Part shown: in pieces, positions 1 to 6,743 of the stretch
Numbering within the stretch: position 1 is the stretch's first letter
Layout: the number at the start of each line of letters is the position of its first letter
Source: a virus
Taxonomy: Duplodnaviria > Heunggongvirae > Uroviricota > Caudoviricetes
Length of the DNA: 6,743 nucleotides
Virus record (IMG/VR): IMGVR_UViG_3300029104_000056
Location: 1 to 6,743 of that record
Reading direction: 5' to 3' (one strand)
Notes under the pieces: generated by a model
Databases searched by the model: none
What the model saw: only the letters and a program-made list of their open reading frames with translations
What the model was told of the DNA's origin: nothing
Made by a program: the position numbers and the translations under genes

Positions 1-104
1 CGGAACTGACGGCCGGGGCAGAAAAACGCCGTCGCCGGAAGAAAAAACTGCGGACGGAGCGTGCGGAAGATAATCCATGGACAACATCAGGAGGCTGGTT
101 GTGA
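1..104 (+). CDS. Large terminase subunit, C-terminal fragment (5' end lies outside the window)
   Basis: The frame with codons at 3-5, 6-8 and so on is open from the window edge to TGA 102-104 and uses typical enterobacterial codons (ctg, gaa, aaa, cgc, cgt). It encodes a basic tail, ...AEKRRRRKKKLRTERAEDNPWTTSGGWL*. It sits directly upstream of the W-like and portal genes, as the A gene does in lambda. Too short for confident homology. Confidence 0.4.
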   Translation, partial: ELTAGAEKRRRRKKKLRTERAEDNPWTTSGGWL

Positions 105-313
105 GCACTGAAGAAGTCAGAGAAATGATACAGCGGTACCGTGAAGCGGAAAGGGCGGTACTGGAGGGGAAGTCTGTCACCTTCAACGGGCAGCAACTGA
201 CGCTGGAAAGCCTTTCTCAGATCCGCGCCGGACGTCAGGAGTGGGAACGCAGGCTTGCCGCGATGGAGAACCGCAGACGGGGAAAACCGGGATTTAAACT
301 GGCGAGGTTTTAA
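101..313 (+). CDS. gpW-like head completion / head-tail joining protein
   Basis: The C-terminus ...AAMENRRRGKPGF resembles the lambda gpW C-terminus (...QRRRGPAGFYV as I recall it). Preferred start is GTG 101, preceded by AGGAGG at 89-94 with a 6-nt spacer and overlapping the terminase stop as GTGA; this gives about 70 aa, similar to gpW (68 aa). The ORF track's in-frame ATG at 77 is the alternative start. Stop is TAA 311-313. Confidence 0.7.
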   Translation: MSTEEVREMIQRYREAERAVLEGKSVTFNGQQLTLESLSQIRAGRQEWERRLAAMENRRRGKPGFKLARF

Positions 314-1807
314 TGGCAATTATCGATGATGTGATAGGCGTGTTTTCCCCCGGATGGAAAGCAGCCAGACTGCGTTCAAGGGCATTAATCATGGCCTATG
401 AGGCGGTGAAAACGACCCGGACACATAAAGCCCGGCGGGAAAATCGCTCTGCTGATCAGCTCAGTAAATACGGTGCGGTTTCCCTGCGGGAGCAGGCCCG
501 TTTTCTGGATATCAATCATGACCTGGTGATTGGTGTGTTTGACAAGCTTGAAGAGCGGGTGATTGGTGCCAGGGGAATTATTGTGGAGCCTCAGCCATTA
601 CGAAAAAACGGGGAAATGGCGGCAGAGCTGGCTGCGGATATCCGCCGGTTGTGGGCTGAATGGTCGGTCAGTCCGGATGTGACAGGGCAGTATACCCGTC
701 CCGTGCTTGAGCGTTTACTGCTGCGGACCTGGCTGCGGGATGGTGAAGTGTTTGCGCAGATGGTCAGTGGGGCGGGAAATGGTCTGGAACGGACGGCGGG
801 AGTGCCATTCTGGCTTGAAGCGATGGAGCCGGATTTTGTTCCCATGCGCAGTGATGAATCCGCCGGGCTGAATCAGGGGGTTTTTCTTGATGAGTGGGGA
901 AGACCGAAAAAATATCTGGTTTATAAAAATTATCCGGTCAGCGGCCGGCAGAGTGATACGAAAGAAATCGTTGCCGGAAAAATGATCCACCTGAAGTTCA
1001 CTCGTCGTCTGCATCAGACGCGAGGCTCATCCATGTTATCGGGGGTGCTGATGCGGATCAGTGCCCTTAAGGAGTATGAGGATGCGGAACTGACGGCAGC
1101 GCGTNNNNNNNNNNNNNNNNNNNNNNAAAGGGGACGGGCAGGACTATGAAGATCCTGGGATCAAAGAGACCGAGCGGGAAGTCCATATCACCCCGGGTAT
1201 TATTTATGACGATTTGCGCAAGGGCGAGGATATCGGCATGGTCAAATCTGACCGTCCTAACCCCAATCTTGAAACCTTTCGTAACGGTCAGCTGCGTGCA
1301 GTAGCTGCAGGCAGTCGTCTGAGTTTTTCCAGTGCGGCGCGTAACTATAACGGTACCTACAGTGCCCAGCGGCAGGAGCTGGTCGAGTCCACCGACGGGT
1401 ATCTGATCCTGCAGGACTGTTTTATTGGCGCGGTAACCCGCCCTGTGTACCGGACATGGCTGAATATGGTGGTTGCGGCAGGTCTGCTGAAAATTCCGGC
1501 AGATGTGGAGATGAAAACGCTATATAACGCGACGTATTCCGGTCCGGTGATGCCGTGGATCGATCCGGTTAAGGAAGCTGAAGCCTGGAGAATTCAGATC
1601 CGGGGTGGTGCAGCGACAGAATCCGACTGGGTTCGGGCCGGAGGGCGCAATCCGGATGAGGTCAAACGTCGCCGCAAGGCTGAAATTGATGAAAACAGCA
1701 GACTGGGGCTGGTCTTTGATACTGACCCCGTCAACGATAAAGGAGGAAACAGTGCCGGAACTGAACGACAGCATCAGCGCGACACCGAAAGCCAGCATGA
1801 AGAATAA
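313..1807 (+). CDS. Phage portal protein (interrupted by an N-run at 1105-1126)
   Basis: ATG 313 overlaps the W stop (TAATG) with GCGAGG at 302-307 upstream. A 278-aa ORF runs into the N-run, and coding resumes at 1127 in a different frame through to TAA 1805-1807 (...GGRNPDEVKRRRKAEIDENSRLGLVFDTDPVNDKGG...). Size (about 500 aa) and position between the W-like gene and the prohead protease fit a portal. The frame change across the Ns reflects unknown gap length, not necessarily a real frameshift. Confidence 0.8.
1105..1126. other. Run of 22 N (assembly or masking gap) inside the portal gene
   Basis: Directly visible. The coding frame differs on the two sides, so the true gap length is unknown. 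Confidence 0.95.
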
Positions 1808-3768
1808 ATCCTGGTTCAGGATGCAGGCTGGGGGGCCGGGTGACGCAGATATTTATATTTATGATGAGATTGGTTTCTGGGGCGTTACCGCGAAGCAGTT
1901 TGTCAGCGAACTGAATGCACTTGGTGATATCACCCACATTAATCTCCATATCAATTCACCGGGTGGCGATGTCTTTGAAGGCATCGCCATTTTTAATGCC
2001 CTGAAAAATCAGGGGGCGACCATTACCGTGTATGTGGATGGCGTTGCCGCCTCGATGGCATCCGTGATTGCGATGGCCGGTGATACGGTCATTATGCCGG
2101 AAAATGCCTTCATGATGATCCATAAGCCATGGGGATTCAGTGGCGGGGATGCTGAGGATATGCGCAGTTATGCCGATTTGCTGGATAAAGTCGAATCGGT
2201 ACTGTTGCCAGCCTATGCGCAGAAAACCGGAAAAACCACCGATGAAATTGCCGCCATGCTGGCGGATGAAACCTGGATGTCCGGTGCTGAATGTCTGGCA
2301 CACGGATTTGCTGACCAGGTGACACCCGCTGTTAAGGCAATGGCATGTATTCAGTCAAAACGTACAGAGGAATTTAAAAAGATGCCGGAATCCATTCGAA
2401 ATATGATTACTCCGCCACGCAACAGTGCTCCACGCGTACAGGATGATGGACCTGCAGCCTCCCGGACGCCAGTGCAGGCAGCAGCACCCGTGGTGGATGA
2501 AAACAGCATCCGTGCGCAGGTCCTGGCAGAGCAAAAAGCGCGTGTAAACGGTATTAATGATCTGTTTGCCATGTTTGGCGGGCGTTATCAGTCGTTGCAG
2601 GCTCAGTGTCTTGCCGATCCTGAATGTTCGCTGGAGCAGGCCCGCGAAAAGCTGTTGAACGAGATGGGGCGCGAGTCCACGCCATCCAATAAAAATACCC
2701 CGGCTCATATTTATGCCGGTAACGGTAATTTTGTGGGGGACGGGATCCGCCAGGCGCTGATGGCGCGCGCCGGGTTTGAAAAAACTGAACGTGATAATGT
2801 CTACAACGGGATGACCCTGCGTGAATATGCCCGTATGTCACTGACTGAACGTGGTATTGGTGTTTCCAGTTATAACCCGATGCAGATGGTCGGTGCGGCG
2901 TTCATACACAGTACGTCTGACTTCGGTAATATTCTGCTGGATGTTGCGAACAAAGCCATTCTGCAGGGCTGGGAAGATGCCCCTGAAACCTATGAACAGT
3001 GGACGCGGAAAGGTCAGTTGTCTGATTTTAAAATTGCCCATCGTGTGGGTATGGGGGGCTTCAGTGCTCTGCGTCAGGTGCGTGAAGGGGCAGAATATAA
3101 ATACGTCACCNNNNNNNNNNATGGCACTGGCGACCTATGGCGAGCTGTTCAGTATCACCCGTCAGGCCATTATCAATGATGATCTGAATATGCTGACCGA
3201 TGTCCCGATGAAGCTGGGCCGTGCGGCGAAATCCACTATTGCCGATCTGGTTTATGCCATTCTGACGTCTAACCCGAAAATCTCCACAGATAATGTAAGT
3301 CTGTTCGATAAAGCGAAACATGCAAACGTACTGGAGAGCGCGGCAATGGACGTGGCATCGCTGGATAAAGCCCGCCAGTTGATGCGCGTTCAGAAAGAGG
3401 GTGAGCGTCATCTGAATATTCGTCCTGCGTTCGTACTGGTACCGACGGCGATGGAGTCTGTTGCTAACCAGGTCATTCGCTCCTCAAGTGTCAAGGGGGC
3501 TGACATTAACGCCGGTATTATTAACCCGGTGAAAGATTTTGCGACCGTTATTGCAGAGCCTCGTCTTGATGATAACAGCCAGACCACCTTCTACCTGGCT
3601 GCGTCCAAAGGCTCCGATACGATTGAAGTGGCTTATCTCAACGGTGTGGATACGCCATATATTGATCAGATGGAGGGCTTCAGTGTGGATGGCGTGACAA
3701 CGAAAGTGCGTATTGACGCTGGTGTTGCGCCAGTTGATCACCGCGGCCTGGTGAAATGTACGGCGTAA
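1752..3768 (+). CDS. ClpP-like prohead protease fused to a linker/scaffold-like segment and a major capsid protein domain (interrupted by an N-run at 3111-3120)
   Basis: Start is GTG 1752 with AGGAGG at 1741-1746 and a 5-nt spacer, lying inside the 3' end of the portal gene. The N-terminal domain has ClpP-type motifs: VDGVAASMAS (Ser codon 2052-2054) and MMIHKPWGFSGG (His codon 2121-2123). A Pro/Ala-rich and predicted helical segment follows (about 2400-2700), then a capsid-like C-terminal region ending KCTA with TAA 3766-3768. The frame changes across the 10-N run, but coding sequence resumes immediately at 3121. Confidence 0.8.
3111..3120. other. Run of 10 N (assembly or masking gap) inside the capsid domain
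   Basis: Directly visible. The frame differs on the two sides (codons at 3108-3110 before, 3121-3123 after). Confidence 0.95.
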
Positions 3769-3791
3769 ACGTCGCAGACAACAACTCTGAT

Positions 3792-3811
3792 GGCCCGTAA
3801 GGGCTTTTTTT
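3792..3811 (+). terminator. Putative intrinsic terminator after the protease-capsid gene
   Basis: A short GC stem GCCC(GTAA)GGGC at 3793-3804 is followed by a run of seven T at 3805-3811, 25 nt after the capsid stop. Confidence 0.5.
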
Positions 3812-3822
3812 GTACCTGAAAT

Positions 3823-3841
3823 CAGCCCCTGAACGGGGCTG
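3823..3841 (+). promoter_or_regulatory. Perfect 7-bp hairpin just upstream of the next gene's ribosome-binding site
   Basis: CAGCCCC (3823-3829), loop TGAAC, GGGGCTG (3835-3841). There is no T-run after it. GGAG at 3845-3848 and ATG 3855 follow. Confidence 0.4.
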
Positions 3842-3854
3842 TGCGGAGACAGTT

Positions 3855-4178
3855 ATGGCAAAGAATTTTGTAGAAGAAGGAAAAACGGTGGCGATTGTTG
3901 CAAGTGCAGCCATCAGCAGCGGAGATCTGGTGCAGGTGGGTGATGTTTTTGCGGTGGCGCTGACCGATATTCCACAGGGAGAAACAGGCGACGGCATAAC
4001 CGAAGGTGTGTTTATGCTGCCTAAGCTGAAAACGGATGACATGAAAACGGGTAAGAAGGTTTATCTGAAGTCAGGAAAAGTTCAGCTGACTAACAGCGGC
4101 TCTGATCCGCTGGTCGGGGTTGTCTGGGCAGATGCCGGAACCAGTGCAGAAGAAGTGCCGGTAAAACTCAATGTCTGA
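3855..4178 (+). CDS. Small head-associated protein, DUF2190-like (possible decoration or cement protein)
   Basis: ATG 3855 has GGAG at 3845-3848 with a 6-nt spacer. The 107-aa product MAKNFVEEGKTV...GDGITEGVFMLPK... resembles the DUF2190 proteins found next to capsid genes. The ORF track's upstream ATG at 3810 lies inside the terminator and lacks an RBS. Stop is TGA 4176-4178. Confidence 0.55.
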   Translation: MAKNFVEEGKTVAIVASAAISSGDLVQVGDVFAVALTDIPQGETGDGITEGVFMLPKLKTDDMKTGKKVYLKSGKVQLTNSGSDPLVGVVWADAGTSAEEVPVKLNV

Positions 4179-4446
4179 TCCCTTTTCCCGGCTGGCAGCG
4201 CGTATGGATGCGATCACGGTCAGAAAGATGGGAAAGACAGCCTCGATTAATGATGTCGATATGACTGTGATCCCGGGAGAAACACTGGCAGAGCTGAATG
4301 CTCTGTCCGGACCTGCGGTCTCTCTGGTGGTGTTTTCTTCGGGATACCGCCCACGGCGCGGGGATCGCGTTGTTTATGACGGACAACAATGGACGGTCAC
4401 ACGGCATGAACGTTTTAACGGTAAGCCAATGATCTTTATTGAGTAA
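4171..4446 (+). CDS. gpFII-like head-tail joining protein
   Basis: The 91-aa product has an N-terminus (FSRLAARMDAITVRKMGKTASIN) and an RRGD...W.V.R segment (PRRGDRVVYDGQQWTVTRHE) that parallel lambda gpFII as I recall it. It overlaps the upstream gene by 8 nt. Stop is TAA 4444-4446. Confidence 0.7.
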   Translation: MSDPFSRLAARMDAITVRKMGKTASINDVDMTVIPGETLAELNALSGPAVSLVVFSSGYRPRRGDRVVYDGQQWTVTRHERFNGKPMIFIE

Positions 4447-4457
4447 TGAGGTGTGGG

Positions 4458-5036
4458 ATGAAGGGGCTTGAGAATGCCATCCGCAATCTGAACAGCCTTG
4501 ATACCCGTATGGTGCCACAGGCCAGCGCATGGGCGATAAACCGTGTGGCACAGAAAGCGGTCTCGGTTGCCACCCGGCAGGTTGCCGGGAATACCGTTGC
4601 GGGAGATAACCAGGTGAAAGGGATCCCCCTGAAACTGGTACGTCAGCGTGTCCGGGTGTTTAAAGCCAGTCCGTCAGGAAAAATGACGGCCAGGATCCGC
4701 GTTAACCGGGGCAATCTGCCCGCCATTAAGCTGGGGACAGCCCGGGTCAGACTGGCCCGGCGTGGTGGAAAACTGCAGTACCGTGGCAGTGTGCTGAAGG
4801 TGGGTAAATATCTTTTCCGGGATGCGTTTATTCAGCAACTGGCGAATGGTCGCTGGCATGTGATGCGACGTATTGATGGCAAAAATCGTTACCCCATTGA
4901 TGTGGTGAAAATCCCGCTGTCCGGACCGCTGACACAGGCATTTGAAGATGCCCGCGACCACATCATTGCTGCGGAAATGCCGAAACAGCTGGGGTATGCA
5001 CTGAAACAACAACTGAGGTTATGGCTGACCCGATGA
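4458..5036 (+). CDS. gpZ-like tail completion protein
   Basis: Strong resemblance to lambda gpZ: KGLENAIRNL, WAINRVA, IRVNRGNLPAIKLG, AFIQQLANGRWHVMRRIDGKNRYPIDVVKIP, LGYALKQQLR. Start ATG 4458 is preferred, with GAGG at 4448-4451 and a 6-nt spacer, matching the lambda MAIKGLE start. The in-frame ATG at 4446 (TAATG overlap) is the alternative. Stop is TGA 5034-5036. Confidence 0.85.
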   Translation: MKGLENAIRNLNSLDTRMVPQASAWAINRVAQKAVSVATRQVAGNTVAGDNQVKGIPLKLVRQRVRVFKASPSGKMTARIRVNRGNLPAIKLGTARVRLARRGGKLQYRGSVLKVGKYLFRDAFIQQLANGRWHVMRRIDGKNRYPIDVVKIPLSGPLTQAFEDARDHIIAAEMPKQLGYALKQQLRLWLTR

Positions 5037-5434
5037 ACCGACATACACAAATCCGCCAGGTCGTACTGGCACGCCTTCGGGAACAGTGTGGAGACAGCGC
5101 CACGTTTTTTGACGGGCTTCCGGCATTTGTTGATGCGCAGGAACTGCCTGCCGTGGCGGTGTGGCTGAGTGATGCTCAGTACACCGGAAAAATGACGGAT
5201 GAAGATGACTGGCAGGCTGTTCTGCATATTGCTGTCTTCATCCGGGCACAGGCACCGGATTCAGAGCTGGATATGTGGATGGAGAGCACCATTTTCCCGG
5301 CCCTGAATGATGTACCAGCACTTTCCGGACTCATCGACACCCTGATCCCACTCGGTTTTAACTATCAACGTGATAATGAGATGGCCACCTGGGCGATGGC
5401 GGAAATCACGTACCAGATCACGTACACGAATTAA
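5033..5434 (+). CDS. gpU-like tail terminator protein
   Basis: Strong resemblance to lambda gpU: ATFFDG, ELPAVAVWL, DWQA.LHI.VF..AQ.PDSELD.WMES, ITYQITY. ATG 5033 overlaps the Z stop (ATGA) and aligns best with the lambda N-terminus. The in-frame ATG at 5021 given by the ORF track is the alternative. Stop is TAA 5432-5434. Confidence 0.85.
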   Translation: MNRHTQIRQVVLARLREQCGDSATFFDGLPAFVDAQELPAVAVWLSDAQYTGKMTDEDDWQAVLHIAVFIRAQAPDSELDMWMESTIFPALNDVPALSGLIDTLIPLGFNYQRDNEMATWAMAEITYQITYTN

Positions 5435-5444
5435 GGAGGTGGTA

Positions 5445-6188
5445 ATGACCACACCAAATCCACTGGCAAAAACGAAAGGTGCGGGAACGACGTTCTGGAT
5501 GTATACCGGCAAGGGCGATGCGTTTGTGAACCCTTTATCGGACACTGACTGGCTGCGTCTTGCGATGGTGAAGGATCTGCAACCTGGCGAAATGACCGCT
5601 GATGCAGAAGATGACACTTATCTCGATGATGAAGATGCAGACTGGAAAACGACAACCCAGGGGCAGAAATCAGTCGGTGATACTTCGGCGACGCTGGCCT
5701 GGCGTCCGGGGGACAGCGGGCAGAAAAAACTGGTTCAGTTGTTCGACTCCGGTGAAGTCTGCGCGTTTCGTATCAAATATCCCAACGGTACTGTTGATGT
5801 TTTCCGTGGCTGGCTGAGTTCACTGGGTAAAACCATTGCTTCAAAAGACGTGATGACCCGCACAGTGAAAATCAGCGGTGTGGGGCGTCCGTATCTGGCA
5901 GAGGAAGGCACTGAAACCGTGGGCGTTACCGGGCTGACGGTGGCACCGGCATCTGCCAGTGTAAAAGTGGGAGCAACCACCACGCTGACCTTTACAGTAA
6001 AACCTGACGGAGCCAGTGACAAAGCGATCAGTGTGCATTCGACAGATCCACAGACTGCCACGGTGACCCTGAACGGGCTTGTGGCCACGGTGAAAGGCGT
6101 GAAGCAGGGCAGTGTCAGCATTGTGGGCATGACTTCTGACGGCGATTTTGTGGCAGTGGCTACGGTGGCTGTCAGCGCCGCAGGTTAA
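5445..6188 (+). CDS. gpV-like major tail protein with a C-terminal Ig-like domain
   Basis: AAGGAGGTGG at 5433-5442 precedes ATG 5445. The product is close to lambda gpV: KGAGTT.W.Y.G.GD...NPLSD.DW.RLA.VKDL.PGE.TA, the acidic YLDDEDADW block, PNGTVDVFRGW.SS.GK, TRTVK..GVGRP. The C-terminal part (about 5925-6185) is rich in T/V/S/A with alternating beta-like pattern, as in the gpV Ig-like domain. Stop is TAA 6186-6188. Confidence 0.9.
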   Translation: MTTPNPLAKTKGAGTTFWMYTGKGDAFVNPLSDTDWLRLAMVKDLQPGEMTADAEDDTYLDDEDADWKTTTQGQKSVGDTSATLAWRPGDSGQKKLVQLFDSGEVCAFRIKYPNGTVDVFRGWLSSLGKTIASKDVMTRTVKISGVGRPYLAEEGTETVGVTGLTVAPASASVKVGATTTLTFTVKPDGASDKAISVHSTDPQTATVTLNGLVATVKGVKQGSVSIVGMTSDGDFVAVATVAVSAAG

Positions 6189-6208
6189 CAGGACGATACT
6201 CATCATTT

Positions 6209-6232
6209 GCCCCGGTTATCCGGGGCTTTTTT
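6209..6232 (+). terminator. Intrinsic terminator after the major tail gene
   Basis: Perfect 7-bp GC-rich stem GCCCCGG (6209-6215), loop TTAT, CCGGGGC (6220-6226), followed by TTTTTT at 6227-6232. Confidence 0.7.
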
Positions 6233-6248
6233 GCAGGTGGAGAACATG

Positions 6249-6635
6249 ATGTTTCTGAAACAGGGCACGTTTAATTATGAAAAGCAGTCCGTGGTGCTCA
6301 GTGAGCTGTCCGGGCTGCAGAGAATTGAATATCTGGCGTTTGTTCAGCAGCGAACGGCAAAGTTTGATGCCGAAGAGGGAGAACTGCCGGAGGCTGAACG
6401 ACAGATTGCTTTTCTGCGGATGGGGATGGATATCAATGCCTGGCTGGTTTCCCGCTCACTGTGGAATGCGGAACAGTCTCAGGATGTTGAGACGCTTTGC
6501 GCATCCGTTATTACAACATGGTCGTATGATGCCCTGGGAACGGGGGCGGAGATGGTTCTGTCGCTGAGCGGTATGGGAGCCATTGAGAATGCCGGGGATT
6601 TGGAGCATGAGGTGCTGACGCCGGAAAAGTCCTGA
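6249..6635 (+). CDS. gpG-like tail assembly chaperone
   Basis: The N-terminus MFLK...VVLSELSGLQRIEYLAF parallels lambda gpG (MFLK...TLSELSALQRIEHLAL), and LSLSGM matches RLSGM. GGAG at 6239-6242 is 6 nt from ATG 6249; ATG 6246 is an in-frame alternative. Stop is TGA 6633-6635. Confidence 0.85.
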   Translation: MFLKQGTFNYEKQSVVLSELSGLQRIEYLAFVQQRTAKFDAEEGELPEAERQIAFLRMGMDINAWLVSRSLWNAEQSQDVETLCASVITTWSYDALGTGAEMVLSLSGMGAIENAGDLEHEVLTPEKS

Positions 6636-6743
6636 CGCGGGAAATGCAGTTTGTCATGCGGCTTGCCCGGGAGTTCAGGCGGGCAGACTGGCGGCGGATG
6701 CTGTCGGAAATGTCGGCCACTGAGCTTGGTGAGTGGGGCGATT
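6611..6743 (+). CDS. gpT frame: start of the tail assembly protein, likely expressed as a G-T frameshift fusion (3' end lies outside the window)
   Basis: The -1 frame reads GADAGKVLTREMQFVMRLAREFRRADWRRMLSEMSATELGEWGD and is open to the window edge. It overlaps the last 25 nt of G and sits where T sits in lambda. Confidence 0.6.
6623..6629 (+). promoter_or_regulatory. Candidate -1 frameshift slippery site for the gpG-gpT fusion
   Basis: GGAAAAG read as G GAA AAG in the G frame, placed just before the G stop as lambda's G GGA AAG is. The -1 frame is open only from 6611 (a TGA at 6608-6610 closes it upstream) and runs to the window end. Confidence 0.5.

Follow-up and report, generated by a model that had tools for sequence, protein, structure and literature searches.

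In a 6,743-nucleotide (nt) stretch of tailed-phage DNA (IMG/VR record IMGVR_UViG_3300029104_000056, positions 1 to 6,743; hereafter the window), the gene at positions 3,855 to 4,178 encodes what is very probably a decoration protein of the virion surface. Its family membership, its predicted fold, a solved homologue and its linkage to the capsid gene mark its small, all-beta product as a decoration (cement) protein of the head, and by analogy we infer its trimeric state, binding site, copy number, timing of binding and stabilising effect. The initial annotation, made from the letters alone, had argued from genomic context for a capsid-associated role (decoration or cement), and this role is now supported by the Pfam and PHROG names, the fold matches, the membership of gp48 of phage phiCD508 in the same family, the adjacency to the capsid gene and a reported trimer on the Gifsy-2 head. 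The gene is unremarkable, a phage head decoration gene that has a name already and whose role stands in public databases and in the literature.

The open reading frame (ORF) runs from an ATG to a TGA stop at 4176-4178 and its product reads MAKNFVEEGKTV...GDGITEGVFMLPK...VKLNV, bearing out the coordinates and motifs quoted for a protein of 107 amino acids (aa) in the initial annotation. An alternative longer ORF with a TTG start at 3810 also overlaps the gene; since every homologue begins with MAKN, the true start is 3855. This is a genuine gene, as its family comprises 1354 clusters (HMMER, 50% identity level, E ≤ 0.001, 1.84 billion representatives), and its DNA is present in 1826 of the 5426 complete Escherichia coli genomes. 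The lambdoid coliphages mEp460, Ayreon, cdtI, Tritos and HannyBb match the window at about 99% identity, and the protein differs at one of its 107 residues from mEp460 gp06, for which the RefSeq name is 'head decoration'.

The assignment to DUF2190 was correct: the protein matched PF09956 with 73.1 bits (gathering cutoff 24), its residues 6-105 covering positions 1-103 of the 103-position profile, and this family, formerly DUF2190, is now called Phage_cement_2, 'Phage cement protein', in Pfam. The match to PHROG 122, 'head decoration', also spans the whole profile (E = 5.5e-47; residues 1-107 against positions 1-109 of 109). NCBIfam returned no model for the protein. The RefSeq re-annotations of the mEp460 and cdtI genes read 'head decoration' where the GenBank originals had 'hypothetical protein', and the earlier view of the function as unsettled is therefore out of date, given also the renaming of the Pfam family. 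Our search of the literature on DUF2190/PF09956, mEp460 and STM1034 found no functional study of the family.

Structure prediction and a structural-similarity search, the check proposed in the initial annotation, were carried out, and decoration proteins, including ones that were solved on capsids, ranked at the top of both fold-search lists for the predicted model. The model, a predicted monomer of 107 aa, is all-beta and has the beta-tulip core common to the solved decoration proteins. Other names that appeared in the comparison of the family were XM1, FCWL1, E217 gp24, the mycobacteriophages Adjutor and Patience, Borrelia BB1, the phi29 head-fibre base and YSD1. Lambda gpD has no detectable sequence homology to the protein (hhalign probability 0.1%; no match to the gpD family in Pfam), the second subdomain of lambda gpD and phage 21 SHP, both beta-tulip decoration trimers, is unlike that of the model, and the lambda D gene precedes E whereas the gene described here comes after the capsid gene. 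Against PF22758 (Phage_cement), the family of Pam3 gp6 and E217 gp24, the protein scored 21.2 bits, below the cutoff of 27, and these two proteins are larger, with 166 and 211 aa compared to 107. In the case of the phi29 head fibre gp8.5, it was the N-terminal base that was compared, and our protein has no fibre part.

The link to a solved structure came through sequence. Searches of the PDB sequences with the single protein and with the narrow profiles A2 and A3 gave no significant match, and only a broad profile of 102 family sequences found phiCD508 gp48 (PDB 9gay/9gb0; E = 6.2e-8), the aligned segment of which scores 59.9 bits on PF09956. Cryo-electron microscopy has established gp48 as a capsid decoration protein of a T=7 head that carries 420 copies of it, with trimers that each touch nine capsid subunits and with an N-terminal arm (PMC11948020). 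PF09956 thus has at least one member that has been seen experimentally as a capsid decoration protein. Compared to gp48, the protein in the window is about 18-23% identical and its N-terminal arm is shorter (profile position 5 corresponds to residue 19 of gp48); phiCD508 is a myophage of Clostridioides difficile, a Gram-positive host, and carries its decoration gene 5' of the capsid gene instead of 3'. Residues M1, A2, K3 and N4 are conserved. The 'Dec-arm' of gpD-class proteins becomes ordered only on the capsid (PMC7602432), and the first ten residues of our model, which include these four, may resemble it, having a mean predicted local distance difference test score (pLDDT) of 61 as opposed to at least 93 in the other ten-residue blocks.

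A nearer comparison is offered by Gifsy-2 of Salmonella, where the head module has the same gene order and protein families as the window (STM1034.Gifsy2 stands beside a tripartite capsid gene). Identity is 62% between its DUF2190 protein and ours and 70% between its tripartite protein and mEp460 gp05, the capsid domains being nearly identical; the host is different and the sequence is only moderately similar. According to papers that cite Effantin et al. 2010, the protease and coat genes of Gifsy-2 are fused (PMC12315714), its capsid has T=7 symmetry (PMC8814770) and a trimeric protein occupies each three-fold axis. This trimer is probably the product of the DUF2190 gene, given the gene content: no other small gene of the head module is without an assignment.

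The order of genes in the window is a gpW-like adaptor, a lambda-type portal, a protease-scaffold-capsid fusion, the decoration gene, a Gifsy-2-family joining gene, gpZ, gpU, gpV and gpG (Table 1), which confirms the position, between the capsid gene and the next gene in the slot held by FI in lambda, that had been noted from the sequence. The tripartite capsid protein is the presumed binding partner of the decoration protein. Two masked runs of N, 1105-1126 (22 nt) and 3111-3120 (10 nt), neither of them a multiple of three, shift the frame so that the portal and tripartite genes look split; this is an artefact, as both are intact in mEp460. The frame of the tripartite gene is interrupted in the window solely by the run at 3111-3120, the mEp460 protein has 652 aa, and the last 212 aa are identical to it (212/212). 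In several records this gene is named merely 'head maturation protease', a label that leaves the phage without an annotated capsid protein.

To describe the linkage more widely, we collected viral contigs from three distant family seeds (34-36% identity), used a hidden Markov model (HMM) to locate 201 loci carrying the family gene and reduced these to 41 lineages by dereplication at 70% identity. By Pfam, the immediate upstream neighbour was Phage_capsid_4 or Mu-like gpT in 30 of the 41 lineages, and with an HMM built from these Pfam-identified neighbours a capsid-like ORF on the same strand, ending 8-371 nt upstream, was found in all 41 lineages (181 of the 201 loci). The downstream neighbour was of the lambda-FII type in 10/41 lineages and of the Gifsy-2 type in 5/41. 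A related-locus search with a further seed, P0239, found nothing, and a narrower family alignment used as the locus query returned only loci that were 98-100% identical. Some ten environmental lineages carry, between the capsid and DUF2190 genes, an additional small ORF of 71-88 aa that a crude gene calling placed on either strand.

Variants of the domain bear on its oligomeric state. Collagen helices are obligate trimers, and C-terminal collagen-like Gly-X-Y tails occur in two separate lineages of the family, P0017 and P0159. The first of these (L005:5001-5471; 44 member sequences) carries 15 uninterrupted Gly-X-Y triplets on a core that is 90% identical to the protein in the window, in a head-tail module that is otherwise identical, and these tails imply that the capsids of some E. 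coli prophages bear collagen-like head fibres. The collagen-tailed variant was not found among isolated phage records, where the low-complexity filter of BLAST could hide matches. Other members have tandem DUF2190 domains in one chain, three in P0249 and two in P0209, or C-terminal extensions of 50-170 residues. As far as sequence can tell, the collagen tails, the three tandem domains and the extra C-terminal domains would all fit a trimer with its C-terminus facing outward.

In the mechanism that we propose, the tripartite protease-scaffold-capsid protein would build proheads that are then processed by its own protease, and DNA packaging would expand the shell. The decoration protein would most likely bind the outer surface after this step, in about 420 copies per head, with its trimers on the icosahedral and quasi three-fold positions of a T=7 shell. 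A short conserved N-terminal arm (MAKN...) would partly anchor it, and by clamping three neighbouring capsomers against the internal DNA pressure it would stabilise the filled head. Several points weigh against this interpretation. The literature that we searched reports no direct experiment on the protein or on virions of the mEp460 group; the structure is a predicted monomer; and the fold of P0249, predicted without an alignment, had a pLDDT of 31.7 and was uninformative on trimer geometry. The identity of the Gifsy-2 trimer with the DUF2190 product is our own deduction from gene content. The synteny sample was drawn from three seed proteins only, so the tight coupling to capsid genes holds for the sampled branches and not for the whole family. 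Moreover, phage Mu, which has a related type of capsid protein, requires no cement (PMC11915804); ours may therefore be dispensable, and we hold the view that it is essential with lower confidence than its role in decoration.

A different function on the same surface has to be weighed, in which the protein binds the capsid but acts there mainly in adhesion or display, as a surface adaptor or the base of a fibre like the phi29 gp8.5 base and T4 Hoc, and contributes little to head stability. This we regard as improbable, since the protein is the bare 107-aa core without a fibre or extra domain and the descriptions of its nearest relatives in structure and sequence (phiCD508 gp48, HFTV1, Pam3 gp6 and TW1) are of cement or stabilising proteins located at three-fold sites; an adhesive or fibre-base role for the bare core is possible but less likely. 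More ambitious is the proposal, to which we give a low probability, that DUF2190 proteins co-evolve as obligatory partners with protease-fused Mu-gpT-like capsid proteins, being as essential to the filled head as gpD is in lambda, and that the bare 107-aa form would then be the ancestral base for some 140 collagen-like head fibres per virion in some E. coli prophages.

Two further readings arise from position and from names. That the protein is the functional counterpart of lambda gpFI, a packaging or head-completion chaperone absent from the virion, is suggested by position only, as the gene lies between the capsid gene and an FII-type gene like lambda FI and its stop shares bases with the start of the head-tail joining gene. 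The comparison of the family profile with lambda gpFI gave a probability of 0.1% (hhalign), no FI-family Pfam match was found at E ≤ 0.01, and neither fold search yielded an FI-like match, decoration proteins topping both; on the profile comparison and the fold we rejected this role as highly unlikely. Still less credible is a RecA/RadA-type recombinase, a reading that owes its existence to several homologues having been named 'recombinase RecA' or 'predicted RecA/RadA family phage recombinase'. That the family is often misannotated in this way, as had been remarked before, was confirmed by the source names of five homologues (P0087, P0106, P0116, P0118 and P0141, named RecA or RecA/RadA). The label may stem from the G-K-T tripeptide at residues 9-11, but no Walker A motif was found, the model of 107 aa is all-beta rather than a RecA-type alpha/beta ATPase core, and neither Pfam nor the structural searches gave a RecA match. 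It was rejected on motif, size, fold and context, and a decoration protein is the identity that we retain.

Table 1. Features of the window, with related loci outside it (positions are those of the window unless a locus or family member is named).
Feature	Position	Strand	Basis or remarks
gpW-like adaptor gene	77-313		
Lambda-type portal gene	313-1807		
Tripartite ClpP-like protease / scaffold / Mu-gpT-like major capsid gene	1821..3768	+	Pfam CLP_protease, Phage_capsid_4 / Mu-like_gpT; PHROG 133
Intrinsic-terminator-like hairpin, GGCCC-GTAA-GGGCT with seven-T run	3792..3811	+	consensus scan; between capsid and decoration genes
Second G+C-rich hairpin, 7-bp stem CAGCCCC/GGGGCTG, 5-nt loop	3823..3841	+	RNA fold of 3766-3860 and sequence
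Shine-Dalgarno GGAG	3845..3848	+	6 bases before the ATG of the decoration gene; read from the sequence
Head decoration (cement) protein gene	3855..4178	+	107 aa and stop; PF09956 / PHROG 122
Head-tail joining gene, Gifsy-2 family PF13856	4171..4446	+	Pfam 63.6 bits; PDB 2pp6 E 1e-19
Family members with tandem domains or C-terminal extensions	P0249, P0209, P0195, P0216; L148:3501-4178, L276:1713-2378, L268:3501-3986		
Loci with extra small ORF	~220-370 nt before the DUF2190 gene		L167, L163, L171, L161, L175, L160, L162, L265, L187

The gene that follows the decoration gene had been called 'FII-like', a label that turned out weak, as PF05354 matched it at E = 0.0018, below the cutoff, and BLASTP showed no similarity to lambda FII; its identity as a head-tail joining gene of the Gifsy-2 family is clear. 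This gene carries several misleading names elsewhere, being an 'ATP-binding sugar transporter from pro-phage' in Pfam, a 'DNA breaking-rejoining protein' in the NCBI annotation pipeline (PGAP) and a 'minor tail protein' in PHROG. Its ATG and the stop of the decoration gene share 8 nt, 4171-4178 (ATGTCTGA). The same overlap of -8 was also seen in relatives with diverged decoration proteins (e.g. L142, L109, L107, L123 and L114), and its retention in such distant relatives suggests that the two genes are translationally coupled.

Upstream, the terminator-like hairpin at 3792-3811 falls inside the late operon. The mEp460 record annotates a rho-independent terminator at the equivalent place, and a similar hairpin with a T-run was seen in 11 of the 41 related lineages; differential expression and stability of the mRNA 3' end are possible roles for this putative element. 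The second hairpin, at 3823-3841, has no T-run and lies directly 5' of the ribosome-binding site of the decoration gene. The fold of the whole intergenic region (3766-3860) had a z-score of just -1.66.

Because the role is already given in Pfam, PHROGs and RefSeq, and a member of the family has been solved on the capsid, the discovery value of this result is small, and its use lies rather in the correction of names. In complete E. coli genomes, the PGAP name is still 'DUF2190 family protein'. The homologues of Stx2-converting phages, which are about 52% identical (e.g. LC567820.1 72525-72845), stand under a 'membrane protein' feature, and those of VT1-Sakai H0018 and CP-1639 are labelled 'hypothetical'; both labels are further annotation errors. 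The names 'DUF2190 family protein', which affects about one third of complete E. coli genomes, RecA, 'membrane protein' and 'hypothetical' could all become 'head decoration protein'. Being small, abundant and surface-exposed and having a tolerant C-terminus, the protein could also be used as a platform for display on heads of the Gifsy-2/mEp460 type, like gpD on lambda.
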